Origin: Vermamoeba vermiformis
Taxonomy: Eukaryota
Length of the DNA stretch: 20,000 nucleotides
Reading direction: 5' to 3'
NCBI GenBank assembly: GCA_045837725.1
Contig: JBEWZL010000091.1
Span: 46,377 to 66,376, forward strand
Under the pieces are notes generated by a model that did no database searches, was not told the origin of the DNA, and saw only the letters and a list, made by a program, of their open reading frames with translations. A program made the position numbers and the translations under genes. Positions 9,173 to 20,000 of the stretch are shown here, in pieces. How positions within the stretch are numbered: position 1 is the stretch's first letter; every line of letters starts with the position of its first letter.

Positions 9173-12100
9173 ATGGCCAGCGAAAAGAATGTAAATAGTA
9201 CGGACGCTAAAGGCGGAGAGGATTTGCCCGTGGATGTTTCCAATCAAAGGCTCACAAAATTGCCGAATTGGGTCTACAACTCGCATGCCCTGTCCATGCT
9301 GAATGCGAAGAATAACAAGTTAGCTAGACTAGGCAAAAAAATATTCAAATTAACGCGACTGACGCACTTGAACTTGCGTAACAATAATTTGAAGAAGTTG
9401 ACGCGAGGAAATAGACTGGGTATCGAGAAGTTAACGTCACTACGGTATTTGGATCTGGGTCAAAATCAACTATCTAGATTACCAGTATCTATAGCGCAAT
9501 TGGCCCGATTAGATTCTCTCAGTATTGATCACAATCATTTAACACAGGTACGGCGCCGAGATCTCGCTGAGTAAATTACGATATTAATAACGGTATTTTT
9601 ATAGCTTCCTCGAGAGATGGCCACAGGGTTATCTAGACTACAGATACTTCATTTGGATTACAACAACATCGGCCCTACTTTGTTCAGTGCGACCAAAGCA
9701 CGTGAATCTTTTGACGGAGATGACAGTTCGGAAGAAGACGAAGAAGAGCCGATGCCAAATCAAACTATTATAACCGCAAATGGAGAGGCGTTTGATATTA
9801 GCACGAGCTGGAGTTCAACTCTGAAGCATCTAAGCGTTTCTTGGAACAGGCTAGTCGAATGCCCGGATGGCTTGGCACGTTTGGCGAGCTTGACTTACTT
9901 AGATCTCAGTCACAACCAATTGCGAGAGCTGCCTGACGACATTGGAAACTTGAGTCTCCTCCACACTCTAATCGCGAGCAGTAATCCGATCGAAACGCTT
10001 CCCTCGACCCTTCACAAGTTACACAATTCATTGCACACGCTGCACTTGGACTACAATAGGCTTCAGTTCATACCTCCTCAAGTTTATCAACTTACTAAGC
10101 TTGCCGAATTGAAACTGAACAACAACTTGATCGCTGAAATTGGTCACAACATTTCGCAACTGACGTCATTGAAGGTGCTGCATTTGAATGACAATAGAGT
10201 GCGCTACATCCCATTTGAACTCACAACGCTACCCGTGGTTCAAAGCGCAGTAGTCGACGTCTCAACAGGCATTCCGCTGACAGATATCAATCAACACGAT
10301 ATTCACAGCATTTTGTCGATGTCTGAGGAGACTCTGAGTCATAGCAACGAAGCAACTTTTGCCGTGCATCTCGAAGGCAATCCTCTGGAAGACCAAATCC
10401 CGCGCGAAGTTCTTAAGCTCGGCAATGCTGCTGTGATCTCATTCGTGCGATCAATCAATCAATCCAAAGCAAAGTGGCGCCGTGTCAAGCTGATGTTTGT
10501 TGGAGAGGAGAACGTAGGAAAGTCGACCTTGTTACGTATCTTGACCAGCAAGTTCTCGTCGGATTCTGCGGCCTCCAATTCAGCACAAGGAACAGGCTCC
10601 GAGCCTTCGATTTCCAATACTGTATCGGTGCTCAACTTACTAGGCTCGTCATCTGCTCCCAGCATACCCGTATCACTAAGTGCTGAGGTACCTACTCCAC
10701 GTGACTTGAATAAGAAAGCTACAGTGCGAGACCTTGGCAATTCAGCGGAGAAAAACAAAGCAACTGACGGAATCAAGATTTACGATTGGTTGCCTGAGAT
10801 GGACGAAGACATAACGAGCACGTTATCGCCCGAACAGATGGAAGACCTCAGCAAATATCCGTTGGTTTATTCTTGTTGGGACTTTGCTGGACAGGATGTG
10901 TATGTATTTTGATTATTGTTACAGCAATACGTTTACTAATAATACAAACAGGTACTACCCGACGCATCAATTTTTTTTGAGCGGCCGTTGCATCACATTG
11001 CTGATGTTCAACTTGACCGATGTTAAAGGATCTCGCATCGAGTACTGGTTGAAGGCGATTAAACAACGAGCTGGTGTTGGAGTGGGAGCTCCTGCTTGTC
11101 TATTAGTGGGTACTCACCGCGATGACAAAAGAGTTGCTGACGAGCGCATTTGGACCGACACTTTGGCCAAGCTGAAGCAGAAATATCAAAGCAAATTCCC
11201 GTTCATTAAGGGCTACTTCGCTATCAGTTGCAAGAGCTTCAAAGGCATTCGAGAGTTGAAGAACAAAGTCCTCGACTTGACGCTCAGCTCTCGTGTTATG
11301 TCACAGCAAGACGTGCCACTTGGTTGGGTCATGCTTGTCGATCACATCAAGCGAAAGAGACAACAAGAGCAAATAATTAACGTGGCACAATTCGCTCAGT
11401 TCGCACGATCATGTGCCGGTGTGGAAGTACCAGATATTCCGACGTTGGTACGATTCTACAACTCTGTTGGTATTCTGTCATTTTTCGATGACACTAGCGA
11501 CGACGCGCAATTTTTGAAGTTCATCAATATCAACAAACAGCCCAGCAAGAGCACCATGTTAAACGAGTTGGTCATTTTAAATCCTCAATGGATCGCCGAT
11601 TTGATGTCGACTATCATCACAATCAAGCACTCGTTTGCAAAGGACGGTGTGTTGATGGAGTCAGATCTGCCTCAGATATGGCGAGACTATCCCACGGCCA
11701 TGTACGATGCACTGTTGAACCTGCTGGAGAAGTTCGAAGTGGCTTACAGACTAAGAAATTCCAATTTGATTGTCTCACCTGCTATTACTTTCTTGGCGAA
11801 GCTACCAATGCGCTACGAACGAATCAAACGCAAGAACAGACCTGGACGTAGCAACACTGTGTTTGCACTCAATTATCAAGACCCAGAAGTACCGGATTCA
11901 ACAGAAGATATGACCGGTGGACGCGAGAGAAGTGGCACTGTCATCGTTCATGATTCATTGCCGCCATTTGATATGAGTGCCCTGGAGAGCCCGCCAATCA
12001 ATGACATTACTAACTCGGTCACGAAATCTCCTCGGGATAGTCCACTTCGAGAGGCAAGAGATGACGCGGGGTTGAAGAAAGCAACGAAAGGCAGCGCTGC

Positions 12101-15100
12101 AGTTACACGCACGGATCGAAGCAAGAGTTTTGACTTGGGCAAGAAGCACGCGATCACCAGCATTAACTTGACCAACCTGCCAAAGCCTTTCGAGAAGTCC
12201 GAGACGTCACCAAAGGAAAAGAAAGAAAAAGAGAAGGAAAAAGATAAGCGCAAGAGTCCACGAAGAAAACGACGAGACAGCGACTTGGCTCCGCGACGAA
12301 CCCCGTTGGCGAAGAGTGATAATGCCGTTCAATCCCTGAGCGCGGAAAAACTGATTTCACCTCCGCTCGTGCAAACCGTGGGATTACCCACTGGCGGATC
12401 ATTGGACTCCGTTATAGAACAGCCTTTACCTGCACAGGTTGTAAATTTGAAGACATCGGCCGAGGCTCTTGACGACAGTCTTGAAAGCAGCGTTGATAGC
12501 GATATGAGTTCCGATGAAGATCCGGTCAGTCCAATGAAAAAGAAAAAAGACCGCTCAAAGCGTGAAAAGAAGAAAGAAAAGTCAAAGAAGGCAAAGTTGA
12601 TCAGAAATTCAAGCGGAAAGATTAAGATTAGCTCGACTGTGAACTACTCTCCAGAACCCAGAGACGAAACTAAGGCTATTGCTATCAAGGGTGTGTTGAA
12701 GAGAACCCCGAGCAGATCCAACAACGAAACGCCCGTTGGATCGCCGGCCATGAACACGAGCAGCAGCACGGTGTCTTTTGATGTACGCTCGTCACCCGAG
12801 TCAAGCAGCGCGAGTAACAGTGAGCGAGCTAGTTCCCCAAGAGCGGAGCGCGGACGTGACAGTGCGGGCATTAAGATTGTTGTGCCTTGCCTGTTGCCCA
12901 AAGAGCCCAACTTGAAGATGTTTGACGCGTTGTGGCCTGAACCATTCGCTGAATTCACTTCCGACCCTGACTCGATCAACTACGATGAAATGTCTGGCAA
13001 CCTGATCGTATCTATCGATGGAAATGATCAAGGCAATTCTCAAGACTTCTTGCATCCCATGGGGCGTGTGTTATTGTTCGACTTCATGCCGTTAGGATTT
13101 ATGGTAAGTTGAATGGTAGTGGTAATTTCCTGGCTAACACCGTGCTTTCAGTCGCGACTTATTGTTAGGACTTTGCAGCTACGACAGATCAAACCACTTT
13201 ATTTCTGGCGCCATGGTATTATGTTGGATTTAATCAACGAAGACACTGCTTTTACATCGCGCGGTTTGATCGTGTTTGATGAACTTAATTACAACCTTCA
13301 CATTCGCATTCGCACCAAAAAGAACAAAGAAGGCGTGGACGACAAAGGGTACATCAAACCAGCAGCGCAGTTGATGATGTTGCTCATGGACAACATCAAC
13401 ATTTTGTTGTCTCACTCGTGGTTCAAATTCTCGAAACAGCCAGAGATCAGAATTCCGTGTTCGCACTGCTTGGAGCAGAAGTTTGATAAGCTCTGGACTG
13501 ACCCGAATGCCGTGCCCTCAGTCATGAACATTTGTTGGTTCACGCTGGAAGAGTGCCTGATGCGAATTTACACGGGTTCCGATCACGTTGTTTGCTCCGT
13601 GACTCGACAATCGGAACGCGTCGTGAACCTCTTCTCTAACAATACTCGCATGCGCAAATTGTACAACAACTACGCACTCAACTCAGGACTTAGGCTCGTA
13701 CACGACGCGAGAAGAGTAAGACAATCCGTTCCCTTTAGTAACGTACACTTACCTTTATATTTTACAGCGTTTTGAACCGACTGTAAAGGCGAACGTACCT
13801 CTGTCTGACATTTGCCCTGATTTAACGTTCTCGTTTTTGTCGGCAAACTCTGAAAACAACATATCAAGCTTGTTGGTCAACTTCGATGACTTTGTTCTCG
13901 AACGAAAGCTCGCAGTTGGTGGTTTTGCGGAAATTTTTGTTGGCAGACAAAAGCCCAAGGAGTCCGAATACTTCAACGACGACAAAGTATTTGCAATCAA
14001 AGTATTGTTGAACCAAATGAAACAAGTCACTCTGCCACCAAGTCCTCGAAGTGCCCAGCCGACTCCCGAAAAGCCCGCGACAGACACTAACGCTCCTTCA
14101 ACAGTGCAACCAGTTACACCAGAGGTCGAAACACCTGCCGTGCAAAACCCAGAACCGAGCGGCACTGTTTCACCTCCGCCTGAGGAAGTCGTTGTCACTA
14201 ATCAAGAGGTCTCGCAGCAACAGCTATTGCAGCTTCAGAACTTAGAGCGTGCCAAACAGTCCTTTGCACCACAAGAGGTTACTGGAACTGAAGCTGATGA
14301 GCTCATGGATCGAGAGGCCTTTACACTGTTAGGCGAGACTTTCCGTGAATTGCAGCACGAAGTGTTTGTCATGTGTCAACTTCGTCATCCAAACATCGTT
14401 ACGCTGCACGCATTATCCATCAACCCTGTGGCACTGTTCATGGAGTTCTATCCGTTAGGCTCGCTGGACAAGTACTTGAGAGCTGCCATCGAAGGTCGCT
14501 CTGCTTCATCATCCCCACGTGGCATCGAACAACCAAAGGCGCTGAGCTGGAAGTACCGCGTGAAGGTAGCATTAGATATAGCTCAAGGAATGAACTACTT
14601 GCACGGAGAAGACATCATTCATCGTGATTTGCGATCACCAAACGTGTTGATAACCGACTTAAGCGACGAGGCAGAAGTAGTTGCCAAGGGTATGTATCTA
14701 GGATCTCTTTTTGGTTTGAGTGTACTAACGGTTGCAGTCACGGACTTCGGAATGGCTCAATATTTAGCTGGATCTCTTTATGGGGGTGATTTTAACGGTA
14801 CGTTTCCTGTCTGTGTGCCATGAGCTAATAATTTACGTAGAATGTTGGACTGCACCCGAAGTTCAAGAGGGACAAGAATACAACAACAAGTGCGACGTGT
14901 ACAGTTTTGGAATCATAATGTGGGAGTTGTTGCAGATTGGTTATCCATTCATGGAGTTCAACGATAAATATGGCTCTGTGCCACGATCGGAGTTTGCACG
15001 TGCTGTCACCAATGGGCTTAGACCTTCAATTCCAAATAGCGTGCCGGATGAGTATGCCAGCGTTATAACGTAAGTATTATTTAATGCCACAATTTGTTGT

Positions 15101-15221
15101 ATCAACTGTTTTGATTAGGTTATGTTGGCAATCAAGCCCAGATCTACGTCCTAGTTTTAGTGAGGTTGCGGAATTGCTTTTGCCCTTGTTGAAAATCTGT
15201 GAGAAATGGCTGCCATTGTAA
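9173..15221 (+). CDS. Roco protein: LRR - Roc GTPase - COR - TKL kinase (multi-exon)
   Basis: Many LxxLxLxxNxL repeats; Roc VKLMFVGEENVGKST, ATDGI, WDFAGQ, YYPTHQFFLS, VGTHRD; COR VILNPQWIADLM, FMPLGFMSRLIVR; kinase AVGGFAEI, FAIK, HRDLRSPN, DFG, WTAPE, DVYSFGII. Last exon ends CWQSSPDLRPSF..WLPL, TAA at 15219-15221. Confidence 0.95.
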
Positions 15222-15228
15222 TGTAAAA

Positions 15229-15576
15229 TTAAAGTTTGTTTGATAAAGCCTTTTGTTGCTGCCTAATAATATAATATAATATTTCGTCGTCTTCGTCGGA
15301 CTTTTTTCGTTTTTTGTTTTCTTTAAGTTTTTCCATTTTTTTGTTATTTTCTCTTTCCAACTCGTCGTCATCCAGATCTGTAAATAACCACAAATTTAGA
15401 ATTTATTGTGAAAAAATTTGCAACTATTTTTCCTTACGTTTATTTCTTTTTTATCGCTTTCTGCTTGATTCGCGTTTTCATTTTCGTTTCCTTCGTCTTT
15501 ATTATAAGAAGATGGCTCGGCATAGTCTTCACCATTATTTACATCGTTGTTTTCATCTACCGCCGAGCACTTGATC
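15229..15576 (-). pseudogene. 3' fragment of an acidic/Lys-rich gene convergent with Roco, apparently 5'-truncated and frameshifted
   Basis: Coding-like AVDENNDVNNGEDYAEPSSYNKDEGNENE.., intron GTAAGG..TTACAG at 15437-15378, then LDDDELERENNKKMEKLKENKKRKKSDEDDE..KL*. The natural-looking frames differ by 1 nt across the intron, and no clear 5' exon or ATG was found. Confidence 0.4.
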
Positions 15577-15947
15577 TGCAACCGGATTTACGTTGACCTC
15601 GTCGATAGAGCGTTATTATTCGTTTCAAACACCTCTTCGGGGTTATTAAACTTCGTTATCAGCCAAATGAAAAAGAACAACAAATTCTTGATCGGTGGCA
15701 AGACTTTGTTGCTCTTTTACGCCTATCGTGTTTGAACACCAAAACTGTACGACCTACTAGTCGCTACTTGATTTTTCTTTCTAGTAACCAATGATAGAAA
15801 ACAAAGACGATGAGCAGTAAGTTAATGACTTCCGTTCGATGTCTGCTAATAAAATTAGCTTCAAAGAAAAGAAAAATTGATAACGCTACCGAGGAAAGGT
15901 CTGGAAAGAAAGCCAGGAAAGGTACACTCCCTTCTTCGGAGATTTAA
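15574..15947 (+). pseudogene. Degenerate fragment, possibly the C-terminus of a DDE transposase
   Basis: One frame reads DLQPDLR*PRR*SVIIRFKHLFGVIKLRYQPNEKEQQILDRWQDFVALL, weakly like SPELNPIELIFAFVKHIL..QQIVLAF of the neighbouring transposase. It is followed by an intron (15817-15858) and a basic tail. In-frame stops are present. Confidence 0.3.
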
Positions 15948-15966
15948 AATATTTTTTTGAAAGAAA

Positions 15967-16012
15967 TATTATTGTTGTCCGGATTCAAATCCCGCCAAAA
16001 ATAATTTATAAA
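15967..16012 (+). repeat. 46-bp segment, copy 1 (direct repeat of 16777-16823)
   Basis: tattattgttgtccggattcaaatcccgccaaaaataatttataaa vs tattattgttaaccgggctcaaatccccccggaaaattgtttataaa. Confidence 0.8.
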
Positions 16013-16159
16013 TAGTTCCCACCCCGTAAATATTATGAATTTTATAAATTATTTTAAGTAAAATTCAAAATTTGAATAATGTATTACACGGGACGTTCGC
16101 AACCCGGGTAGAGCGTGCCTGCGTGCGAATACACAAATATACAATATTTTAAAGAGACT

Positions 16160-16316
16160 TATTTTATTACTTTATTACTACGGTTACACGATTCAAACAC
16201 ACGCAGAACTCGTTTGGCTTGACTACTCTTAGCAGCACGGAGCAAGGCAGTGACGGAAGTGTTTGGACTTACCTTCGCGGTGTAGGCGGCTTCCGTGGCA
16301 CTCAGGACTTTGACAA
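16160..16316 (-). ncRNA. Candidate short spliced non-coding transcript (left arm)
   Basis: TTGTCAAAGTCC.., donor GTAAGT starting 16272, GCTAA, CAAG acceptor at 16218 (55-nt intron), two AATAAA (16163-16176). No ATG ORF is conserved with the other arm. Transcription is inferred only. Confidence 0.3.
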
Positions 16317-16469
16317 CGCGAAAAAAACAAAAAAGTTTCGTGACACATCTTAGCTCACCTTCCAAATGCGGTCAAAATGACAAGATATCTCGGAAATTCT
16401 TGTCGGAAAACTGGAATGACCAATCATTTGGAAGGATTGAGCTTTGTTTACGTCACGCAATTTTTTCAT

Positions 16470-16625
16470 TTGTCAAAGTCCAAGTGCCACGGAACCACGA
16501 ACGCACGCCGTCGGAGGTAAGTTTAAAACTTGTTGCTGCATTGCTGCCTTGGTAAAGCGCTAAGAGTGTTCAAGCCATTTGTCGGATCTGTATGTGTTTG
16601 TACCATGCAACCCGTAATAAAATAC
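16470..16625 (+). ncRNA. Candidate short spliced non-coding transcript (right arm)
   Basis: TTGTCAAAGTCC.., donor GTAAGT 16517-16522, GCTAA 16559-16563, CAAG ending 16574 (58-nt intron), AATAAA 16616-16621. Transcription is inferred only. Confidence 0.3.
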
Positions 16626-16776
16626 TGTGGTTTAGCATATATTGTGTAATTTATGTCTATTCGCTTGCACGTACGCTCGGTGCCGGCCGCAACGCACGTT
16701 ATTATTATTGAAATTATGAATTTTTAAAATAATTAAAATTCTAAACAAAATTTAAACTATTTACAGGGTTCGAACT

Positions 16777-16823
16777 TATTATTGTTAACCGGGCTCAAAT
16801 CCCCCCGGAAAATTGTTTATAAA
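16777..16823 (+). repeat. 47-bp segment, copy 2 (direct repeat of 15967-16012)
   Basis: See copy 1. A partial inverted third copy (tttataaacaattttccgggg) ends the window at 19980-20000. Confidence 0.8.
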
Positions 16824-17152
16824 ACTCTTAAAATTAAAATTAAGTTTCAATTCTATTAAAATATTGAATTATGAAACAACGATAAACAAATTAATTATCA
16901 GAACGAACAATTTAAAATGATTTAACAATTAATATTAATAAATTACGGCAGTAACGGATGCACGCAGATCGACGGATGTGTTCGTTAAATTATTTTGTCG
17001 TGACTGATTTGAGACAACACCGGAACTAACCTTTATTTTAAACATAAATATATGTATACAACAACATGAATACCAAAACTACAAAAAACAAAGAAAGTCA
17101 CGAGCGCGAGATTGGCGAGGAGAGCGAGCAAGCAGTGGGAGCATGGAGCATT
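16803..17152 (+). repeat. Left long inverted repeat (visible part)
   Basis: Reverse complement of 19631-20000. Segment 16941-17084 matches 19703-19846 with one mismatch (17044) by eye; the outer AT-rich part is more diverged and has indels. Confidence 0.95.
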
Positions 17153-17173
17153 GGATTGTCGTTGCGTTGTATT

Positions 17174-18337
17174 TTATACACGCTGCTTGAGAGGATTTAA
17201 GCAGTGAAGGTAACATTTGAAAACTAACGTACGAGTAACCATTTGGAATGCTAAGACGATTTGCTGTTGCAGGGTTAGATCGCGATTGTAATAGTTTCGA
17301 AGGATATGCTTAACGAACGCAAATATAAGTTCGATGGGATTTAGCTCGGGTGAGTACTTGGGCAATAACTTCAGCTGAATTTTTAGCTTATCTAAGTACT
17401 GTACTAACTCGGCGAATCCTTCAGCACTAGTATGAATGCGAGAATTATCTACAATCAGGTAGTCACCTTCGCGTAGAACATCGCGCGTTACACACCAACG
17501 AACAAAAGAATTGAAGTCCGAGTGACAGTTCGTTTTGGGTCGAATTACACCAACGATTGGCTCCGTCTCTGGGTCGATACTAAACAATTAATACGTTGAT
17601 GACAAAGCTTTACATCATACCATGTAAGTATAATAGCTGATAGAGTTGGTTCATTTAACGGACCACGCTCATTCATTATTACAGGTTGGCCAACTCTGCT
17701 TCGGCCACGCAGTCTGCGAACATCTGTGAACAATTAGGTATGTAAATTATTTAATTGCTGGTCAAATTTACCTTTCTTTTTAAATGAGACTTCATCGATA
17801 AATTTGATTCGGCAAAGTGGCAAAAATATCACCGCTTTGAGATACTCCTCATAATAAGCAATATTATCAGGAGTATACTTGTGCACCTGTTTGTACGATG
17901 CAACTTTATAACTCCTATTTAACGATTAGTAATCTGTGTTCTAACACTTAACGAACATACCAGCGCCACGAGCGGAGCACATCATAAACCCAGTCGGGCT
18001 TAATATCAGTCTCAAGTAGTCGATTGATATGCTGACATATCTCCTTGGCATGAAGGCTGCAATCGGACTTCAACAAGGCCCAAATCAGTGCTTCGATTAG
18101 CTGTTTCTCTTCGTCAGAGAACTTAGAATAGCGATGCCCGCCCCACTTCATTGGGTGGAAACTGTCATCAACAACCTTTCTCTTCCAGTACTTGATTTGG
18201 TCTCTAGAGAGATTGGTCACCCGACAAACGAGCTTCGCCGGGTAAGTCAGTGCAGCAGCCCCTCCGCAAGCTCTTCGAAGATAAAACTCCCGCAGTTTAC
18301 GAAGTCGTTGATGACTTGCAGACTTGTTGTTATTCAT
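17174..18337 (-). CDS. IS630/Tc1/mariner-superfamily transposase (DDE_3-like), DD38E, 4 exons, ~342 aa, intact
   Basis: Exons 18337-17961, 17914-17772, 17723-17621 and 17579-17174 sum to 1029 nt in frame. HTH-like N-terminus (AKLVCRVTNLSRDQIKYWKRK; VYDVLRSWRWSYK), KFIDEVSF, LIVDNSRIH, LPKYSPELNPIELIFAFVK; 38 residues between the second D and the E. Confidence 0.93.
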
Positions 18338-18488
18338 TCTGTTGAAAGTAAGCAATTAGATTTGACACGTGGCGACTTTAAATAGAGTTTCCTGCTTTCA
18401 TTCAAATTTCAGTAAGATCTATCGGAGATTTCTACAGCGAGGAGTATCTCTTAAATGCTTACGTGTCATCGATAATTGCTAATGCAAC
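18338..18488. promoter_or_regulatory. 151-bp bidirectional promoter with dyad symmetry
   Basis: Both genes are preceded by ACGTGTCA-N4-TAATTGCT-..-CAACA-(GA)-TG: minus strand acgtgtcaaatctaattgcttactttcaacagaATG, plus strand acgtgtcatcgataattgctaatgcaacATG. Palindromic AGATCT lies near the centre (18415-18420). Confidence 0.75.
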
Positions 18489-19631
18489 ATGTTAAGCGCA
18501 ACAACACTTGCCTTGCAAGCGTCACAACAATACAAGCACATGAAGGTCAGAGCTCCAACTCCACGACGTTCAGACTTCAGTTCACAGCATGACTATGATC
18601 AAGCCATGCTAAGTTACTACCAAAAGAAGAACCAAGTTCACGCCTACAATCTTCGTCAAGACCAAAAGAGACTCGAGTTCATCAGCAATGGCTTGGCACA
18701 GGGAGAAGCCTTAGTCAACAAAGTGAAGCTCAAGCGTACTGCTAGCCAAATGAGTGATGATGTGGACCAATTGAACGATGTCCAGCTCGAGCGTAAATCA
18801 AAACGTGGCCGTCCTTCAAAAGTGAATTCAATCGATGTACCAAAGGCAGGCACTCCTGCAGGTAAGTTAGTTAGTGCATATATTAGTTAATAATTGAAGA
18901 ATTGAAATTAGGTATTCAAAAGGCTGCGCAGTTTTTCACTACTAATTGCCGAACTGCTAACCCACGATTCAATTCTGAGGCAGAAGCAGAGCAGGCAGCC
19001 ACGGTAAATAACATAAATATTGTTGAAATGCAATTAACCATCGAATAGAAGCTATTTAATAATTTGAACAAAACGAACGCTGCAATAATTCACATAACTG
19101 ACGATGACGGAGAGCTAGACTTACGTGGTCAACTTCCAGGTAAGCAAAATCAAATCCAAGCATTTCTAATTAAAATTCAGACCTTGACCTTGCCAACGAA
19201 GTCGAATTGCCTGCACAACAGGTGTCAGTAGCTCCGTCAAAAGTGTTCGTTAAGAATGAATTCAGTGCTCGACACAAAGTCAGCTACGACTTTTGGCTCA
19301 AAGTATTACCTAGCGAACTGCACTGCTATGCTGATCAACTTGCAACAAGTGGTATTCATGATAAGCATCTAATGGGACTCGACAGCACGATTATTTGGCA
19401 ATTGACGAACGATTTCTCTCTCTGTTGCGAAGTCAAAATTGCTGTGGATAACTATAAGTACGTAGTGTTATTTATAATTATTTGTACTTACGACGACGCA
19501 CTAGGCAATCGTTGAGCTTAAACCAGTTCAACACTAATAATACTAACGTCCGTCCGGTACCACCCGTACCGCCAGCACCAGGTGATGAAAAATCACTTCC
19601 AAGTACTCCAGTACTACCAAACTATCCATAA
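18489..19631 (+). CDS. Transposon accessory protein, ~319 aa, 5 exons: AT-hook-like motif, SAM-like domain, Pro-rich tail
   Basis: Exons 18489-18861, 18912-19003, 19049-19139, 19181-19457 and 19505-19631 sum to 960 nt in frame. KSKRGRPSK (AT-hook core GRP); FWLKVLPSELHCYADQLATSGIHDKHLMGLDSTIIWQLTNDFSLCCEVKIAVDNYK fits the SAM hydrophobic pattern; ends RPVPPVPPAP..PVLPNYP*. Confidence 0.8.
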
Positions 19632-20000
19632 ATGCTCATGTTCTCTCCGCTTGCTCGCTCTCCTCGCCGATCGCTCGCTCGTGACTTTCTTCGTTTTTTT
19701 TGTTGTAGTTTTGGTATTCATGTTGTTGTATACATATATTTACGTTTAAAATAAAGGTTAGTTCCGGTGTTGTCTCAAATCAGTCACGACAAAATAATTT
19801 AACGAACACATCCGTCGATCTGCGTGCATCCGTTACTGCCGTAATTCAGGCTTGATTTATTTAATTTTAATTAATTATAATTATAATTATTTACTGTTAA
19901 AATGTTTAATTAATTTGTTTATCGTTGTTTCTAATTCAACTTTTTAATGAAATTGAAACTTACTTTTAATTTTACGAGTTTTATAAACAATTTTCCGGGG
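19631..20000 (-). repeat. Right long inverted repeat (runs off the window)
   Basis: Reverse complement of 16803-17152; starts at the stop codon of the accessory gene and contains AATAAA at 19750-19755. Confidence 0.95.

Follow-up and report, generated by a model that had tools for sequence, protein, structure and literature searches.

An imperfect palindrome of about 760 bp, first delimited at positions 16013-16776, interrupts a stretch of 20,000 nucleotides (the window), and the question is whether such a structure is an assembly artefact, a source of RNA, or part of a mobile element. Here, we describe evidence that the palindrome is genuine and that it is probably the body of P*, a nonautonomous foldback MITE of about 850 bp belonging to the IS630-Tc1-mariner group, with a second transposon, Y, lodged in its right tip. 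P* is most likely a known kind of element and not a pair of RNA genes.

Setting of the palindrome

The window is intron-bearing eukaryotic DNA, and its first 15,200 positions are filled by RING/helicase, cation-efflux, and LRR-Roc-COR-kinase (Roco) genes, as judged from the list of open reading frames and from Pfam. The Roco gene may hint at an amoebozoan source. On the minus strand, at about 15270-15790, a small expressed gene converges on the Roco gene; it probably contains an intron, located at about 15381-15436. The read evidence came from a single read mapping of 4 of the 24 runs listed: one DNA run (X1, possibly the window's own sample), one aquifer metagenome (X4), and two RNA runs (X21 and X23). 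Reads of the RNA runs (147 and 175 placed, respectively) fell on the small gene (about 15280-15650), for the most part with 90 to 99% likeness and with many fixed differences from the window; thus, their source is a diverged strain. An AT-rich small hairpin at 15671-15718 was matched below threshold by models of the plastid psbA 3' UTR. About 200 bp upstream of the small gene, the minus strand of the P* terminus carries at 15984-16000 what we take to be an E2F/CDE-CHR promoter-like motif. The features discussed below are collected in Table 1.

Table 1. Coordinates of the features of P*, transposon Y, and the neighboring kinase gene
Feature	Positions	Strand	Remarks
LRR-Roc-COR-kinase (Roco) gene	9173-15220		Long low-complexity inserts (ORF list, Pfam)
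TA before P* left end	15970-15971		Presumed target-site duplication
P* left terminus	15972-16010	+	39 bp, homologous to Y terminus; presumed transposase-binding end, judged from sequence
Left arm	16011-16385		Noncoding
Centre	16379-16404		7-bp stem and 12-nt loop (fold); bridged by X1 contig
Right arm	16398-16779		Noncoding
TA within P* right terminus	16780-16781		Mirror of 16009-16010; presumed target site used by Y
Y left terminal inverted repeat	16782-17152	+	About 370 bp
Y transposase gene	17174-18337	-	Predicted product of 342 aa; three predicted introns (17960-17915, 17771-17724, 17620-17580)
Y intergenic centre	18340-18490		Weakly symmetric; presumed two-way promoter
Y second gene	18489-19633	+	Intron-bearing; presumed end; donor-like sites at 18860 and 19138
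Y right terminal inverted repeat	19631-20000	-	Cut by window end

Symmetry, centre, and fold

When 16013-16391 was aligned end to end with the reverse complement of 16392-16776, 269 of the 415 columns matched; 349 columns were ungapped, with 77% likeness, and there were 24 gaps. The alignment score of 192 was compared with 1000 dinucleotide shuffles (mean, -92; maximum, -45) and with 1000 shuffles within 20-nt blocks (maximum, 6). This was the check named in the original prediction, and the score lay far above both controls, so the palindrome is genuine. On both strands, RNA folding gave a long single hairpin, with z values of -15.3 and -18.8 (20 shuffles each). The arms are collinear reverse complements up to a centre of about 12 nt, as had been proposed, and a 7-bp stem with a 12-nt loop is present there.

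A 386-bp contig of X1 spans 16204-16588 and reaches more than 180 letters to each side of the centre, differing from the window by 8 letters and 1 gap. Because it bridges the centre, the palindrome junction is present in short-read data. The divergence of the arms and this contig together rule out an assembly fold-back, in agreement with the earlier view of the locus.

The proposed alternation of conserved and variable blocks did not survive testing. Clustering along the arms was no stronger than under uniform mutation with equal numbers of matches and gaps, whether for the whole arms (P of 0.17 to 0.86 in four measures; 368 matched simulations kept of 6000) or for their inner part (P of 0.16 to 0.71; 770 kept of 6000). 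Coding arms were rejected: no reading frame common to both arms was found, spliced or unspliced, and only 2 of the 24 gaps are multiples of three. The statement that no open reading frame explains the palindrome is therefore upheld.

Termini and junctions of P*

Although the palindrome itself stands, the bounds first given to it were too narrow, since the left end of P* is at 15972 and the right tip falls beyond a transposon that starts at 16782. The 15972-16010 terminus resembles the end of the transposase-coding Y at 16782-16821, with 31 of 40 columns matching, and TA precedes both. With blastn, 15967-16012 was found as a direct repeat of 16777-16823 (47 columns, 81%, E of 2e-4). The common terminus pattern, which was derived from these two sites, has no further occurrence in the window and appeared in none of 200 shuffles.

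Two single contigs of X1, each with 23 to 25 letters on its short side, supply the junction evidence. One runs along the right arm as far as 16782, after which 25 letters repeat the left terminus (15984-16008 side) in reverse complement, matching at 25 of 25 positions when compared by eye. The simplest reading of this contig is a copy of P* that lacks Y and is symmetric to its tips. P* accordingly has terminal inverted repeats, at 77% in the arms and 25/25 in the outer terminus of that contig. The other contig joins 16008 to 16780 at a depth of 189, with 23 letters on the short side and a TA that fits either side. As the two ends of Y are near-identical, this joint is what would be expected of the right junction of Y, read on the minus strand, if the palindrome tip follows. 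A single insertion of Y thus explains both contigs and the window, and under this nested reading, X1 holds both the occupied and the unoccupied form of the TA at 16780-16781.

If Y occupies a TA that lies 39 bp inward from the right end of P*, the last 37 bp or so of P* would lie just past 20000, and the left tip would resemble a direct repeat of the start of Y, as it does. Y should end near 20021, to be followed by TA and then by the last approximately 37 bp of P*. The length of P* would then be about 847 bp, made up of 15972-16781 and the approximately 37 bp expected past 20021. The original prediction had proposed to check whether an inverse copy of 16392-16802 follows beyond 20000; the X1 contig instead joins the Y terminus to the 39-bp tip at TA. 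The join is direct and includes no copy of 16392-16779, which speaks against the palindrome being half of Y's end. The earlier idea of an end-to-end junction of two related elements nevertheless came close to the best reading.

Further flanks were seen in X1. One contig departs from the window at 15969, where 255 unrelated letters precede the terminus. This second flank at the TA at 15970-15971 belongs either to the far end of this copy or to one end of a different copy, and it is not assignable to the right end of this copy. Among the loose ends listed, other flanks also join at 16776 and 16777. No empty site for P* was found among the X1 loose ends and pieces listed.

Transposon Y

Y is about 3.2 kb long, and its inverted repeats (16803-17152 and 19631-20000) are 86% alike over 372 columns. 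In the splice model predicted for its first gene, which was the one of six open three-intron models to pass a donor/acceptor filter, the putative triad, D166-D252-E291, is DD38E; the gene matched Pfam DDE_3 (E of 2.7e-12). The last exon returned 1315 relatives at E<=0.001, the best being an unnamed protein with 79% identity. Other transposase searches returned only distant bacterial or viral relatives, among them bacterial DDE_3 proteins. For the second gene, no Pfam family was found, and the Atlas matches were weak, none of them usable. It encodes a KRGRP motif, which we take to be AT-hook-like. Both genes run outward from the intergenic centre, the halves of which align with a score of 29 (P of 0.003 against shuffles), but 1.5% of 1980 centres placed in the window reach that score. 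Judged by its sequence, Y is apparently an intact, intron-bearing, two-gene DD38E IS630/Tc1 transposon. Duplication of TA is the rule for the IS630-Tc1-mariner group, according to the available text of PMC8533490.

In the aquifer metagenome X4, the interior of Y (17162-19676) was covered without the repeats, mostly at 99% likeness or more and at a depth of 2 to 5. Zero reads of X4 fell on P*, and a depth of 2 to 5 is too low to show absence.

Proposed history of P*

On the foldback explanation, P* would consist of TA, the 39-bp terminus, the left arm, the 12-nt loop, the right arm, the inverted 39-bp terminus, and TA. The transposase of Y or of a close relative would recognize the common termini and cut and paste P* into TA sites. 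Y, at about 3.2 kb, would later have landed at the TA 39 bp inside the right end. The arms may have arisen by a single inverted duplication, or may stem from a parent whose middle was deleted, leaving its two long ends; they would then have drifted while the tips were kept alike. The right-hand TA, the mobility of P*, the identity of the transposase, and the origin of the arms are all deduced in this scheme, and it is speculation whether the present copy, with a Y-type end beside its right arm, could still move alone or with Y.

Beyond the first 45 bp or so, no significant similarity was found between the arms and Y. Local scores fell within or at the top of the shuffle range, and derivation of the arms from the repeats or interior of Y was therefore rejected. 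A match of 16 in 17 between 16595-16611 and the start of transposase exon 2 (17888-17904) was also set aside, as it is not collinear and a level of 14/17 was reached in 94.5% of 200 shuffles. This match is probably due to chance; a branch-and-acceptor-like stretch lies ahead of it on the arm's minus strand.

Two features of the arms are not accounted for by pure drift. The left arm has an outward donor-like site, AG/GTAAGT, at 16274-16267 on the minus strand, followed by a YAG 50 nt further on; the right arm has the same outward site at 16515-16522, with no YAG until 119 nt. In addition, 14 of 17 positions agree between the centre of P* (16382-16398) and the middle of Y (18414-18430). This is the best non-self match in the window, with a P of about 0.015 to 0.05 for a comparison chosen post hoc, and a longer alignment of the two centres was not significant (P of 0.15). 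The donor-like sites and the centre match could be leftovers of a parent that had the layout of Y.

Copies and versions

At least two versions of P* exist, about 2% apart. The second, seen in X1, differs by at least 15 substitutions and 6 small indels within 16179-16654 and by a 75-bp skip. At a depth of 365, the centre contig is consistent with two versions of 250 to 260 each, and it may be a mosaic of majority letters. Two flank contigs of 385 and 627 bases have 0 differences from the window, which leans towards separate loci for the two versions without proving it; alleles of one locus are possible. At 88% likeness or more, only about two inner-arm versions were seen in X1. Summed depth, which is not copy number, was raised to 1267 and 13281 at the termini, compared with 400.

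Loose ends of X1 at 16054 and 16056 are mutually reverse-complementary around TTA, which marks another copy of P* with a different insertion, bearing inverted ends, at the TTA of 16054-16056. In the accessible part of PMC3814204, a target of this size is ascribed to PIF/Harbinger elements. Between the versions, a paired change at 16279 and 16509 turns G-C into A-T on both arms; because both are CpG sites, deamination or conversion is sufficient to explain it. Of the 8 C>T/G>A differences between versions, 4 lie at CpG sites, a hint of cytosine methylation on P*.

The recent copies remain a residual puzzle for the foldback reading: the arms are 23% apart, more diverged than the repeats of Y at 86%, while the copies are only about 2% apart.

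Alternative explanations

The best surviving alternative, which we consider unlikely, derives P* from a larger autonomous element with the same termini, either as its solo palindromic terminal repeat or as a stub left by internal deletion. P* would then be a Thon-like leftover of recombination and would not itself have been amplified. The palindromic repeats of Thon are about 700 bp long, and six solo copies are reported in the part of PMC3464196 at hand. The long repeats and two outward genes of Y, together with the donor-like sites of the arms, would suit gene remnants, and the small number of inner-arm versions fits a structure that did not multiply. However, both ends of P* carry transposon-type termini in inverted orientation, as is needed for mobility. 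The palindrome is also not part of Y's own ends, and no parent was found in the collections searched.

Slightly less probable is a gene-less miniature of the design of Y, which would retain a functional promoter at its centre as well as splice donors and would produce either a pair of short outward RNAs or a single long hairpin. The 14/17 match between the two centres would be in keeping with it. The design meant here runs from a symmetric two-way promoter through one gene to a terminus on either side. If this were true, the diverged arms would resist cruciform deletion, and the RNAs would feed silencing of the family or fire spliced transcripts into neighboring genes.

It is very improbable that the locus is, as the original prediction had offered, a pair of divergent RNA genes or a source of hairpin RNA or siRNA, taken here as noncoding, spliced, possibly element-borne, and driven by a two-way promoter at the centre. 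Such genes would agree with the outward direction of AG/GTAAGT in both arms and with the 50-nt intron-like stretch in the left arm. Of the 5 other AGGTAAG sites in the window, 4 lie, by our interpretation, where open reading frames break off. The similarity of the centre of P* to that of Y also points this way, and a read-through transcript is predicted to fold at about -290 kcal/mol. However, the right arm has no matching acceptor, and the centre-to-centre alignment with Y falls short overall. The Rfam search of the palindrome gave no family at gathering score, its sole inside match at E<=10 being a microRNA model with an E of 2.7; U1 and other Rfam RNAs were rejected, as was a tRNA or B-box gene, the tRNA search having found none.

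The differences between versions also argue against RNA genes. Substitutions fell on arm-matched positions in 12 of 15 cases, compared with 69% expected, and 4 lay inside runs of 7 to 12 matches; the matched blocks are thus without protection, as far as a number as small as 15 sites can tell. RNA depth over the palindrome was <=0.18 in X21 and X23 (46-48% of each read). The kinase exon at 15000-15166 was likewise empty in both runs, and with reads from a diverged strain, this is a weak RNA test.

Finally, the unit might be 16011-16779 alone, a TA-flanked insertion between a 39-bp fragment and Y, with the 16008-16780 joint as the palindrome-free allele and the loose end at 16782 as an inverted insertion into the same TA; the joint does omit precisely 771 bases, its depth being about half that of the flank (189 versus 400), with a TA that fits both sides, but this reading would need two independent insertions in opposite orientations at the same TA of the 39-bp fragment, leaves that fragment unexplained, and has little to recommend it when nesting predicts both contigs from one event, given the near-identical ends of Y.

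Searches for relatives

An exact scan with the inner-arm pattern found nothing in viral or metagenome contigs, and one with the terminus pattern found nothing in metagenome, viral, or prokaryote contigs. With blastn, 15960-16800 had no plasmid match, and a 45-bp AT-rich match of the same segment in 6 phage records was taken as chance. Among 82 loci of transposase relatives, the ends of P* and Y gave one match of 27 bp (E of 0.058), and nothing similar was found at the four such loci that were checked for inverted repeats. A literature search, a weak check made without the host name, returned no title describing P*.

Comparison with known elements

As a probable foldback element, P* has counterparts in several lineages. 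Whole-foldback or long-TIR MITEs of Caenorhabditis elegans include PALTA1/2/4_CE, CeleTc2, CeleTc5, and Tc6, and in the available text of PMC3814204, these are, like P*, noncoding, with nearly the whole element forming one inverted repeat. Tc6, CeleTc2, and CeleTc5 are classed there with the TA-duplicating Stowaway/Tc1-mariner MITEs. P* differs from them in its size of about 850 bp and in arms that are only 77% alike, the likeness being one of description and not of compared sequences. According to the same text, simple deletion does not explain the origin of whole-foldback MITEs.

Submariner_Ps1, a MITE of Pandoravirus salinus described with Submariner_Ac1 of Acanthamoeba in the portion of PMC4495683 at our disposal, is nearly palindromic, like P*, and has the TA duplication that is presumed for P*. 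The ends of Submariner_Ps1 are about 83% like those of an amoebal Tc1/mariner element, and the similarity is confined to the ends, as it is between P* and Y. In contrast to P*, Submariner_Ps1 measures 243 bp and has 30 copies in a virus, and the partner transposase has a D-E spacer of 75 to 86 residues, compared with 38 in Y.

The multigene design of Y resembles that of Thon/Sardine and Anchois of Paramecium and TBE of Oxytricha, which are IS630/Tc1 transposons with extra open reading frames (PMC3464196 and PMC4724952, as excerpted). Within these sources, such a design is otherwise described from ciliates. The palindromic repeats of Thon, at about 700 bp, occur alone too, and Anchois is 3.6 kb long. 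Unlike the ciliate elements, Y has repeats that do not contain the palindrome, two genes running outward from the centre, and no tyrosine recombinase that we could see, and its host has a Roco gene and standard stops in its gene models. The Intruder (DD38E/IT) family shares the D-E spacing of the Y transposase but is described as an animal sibling family of Tc1, and equal D-E spacing need not mean common origin (PMC8533490, in the text available).

Implications

The palindrome is thus explained as a mobile-element structure with corrected boundaries, and current understanding is not overturned. What the locus offers is a matched pair in a little-studied protist: an apparently intact two-gene IS630/Tc1 transposon and a probable foldback element with similar ends. 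With arms 23% apart and copies about 2% apart, a P* family could be used to date the formation of the arms against the amplification of the copies. Because the aquifer metagenome holds an almost identical interior, Y may be considered as a candidate for an active transposon on which genetic tools could be built.
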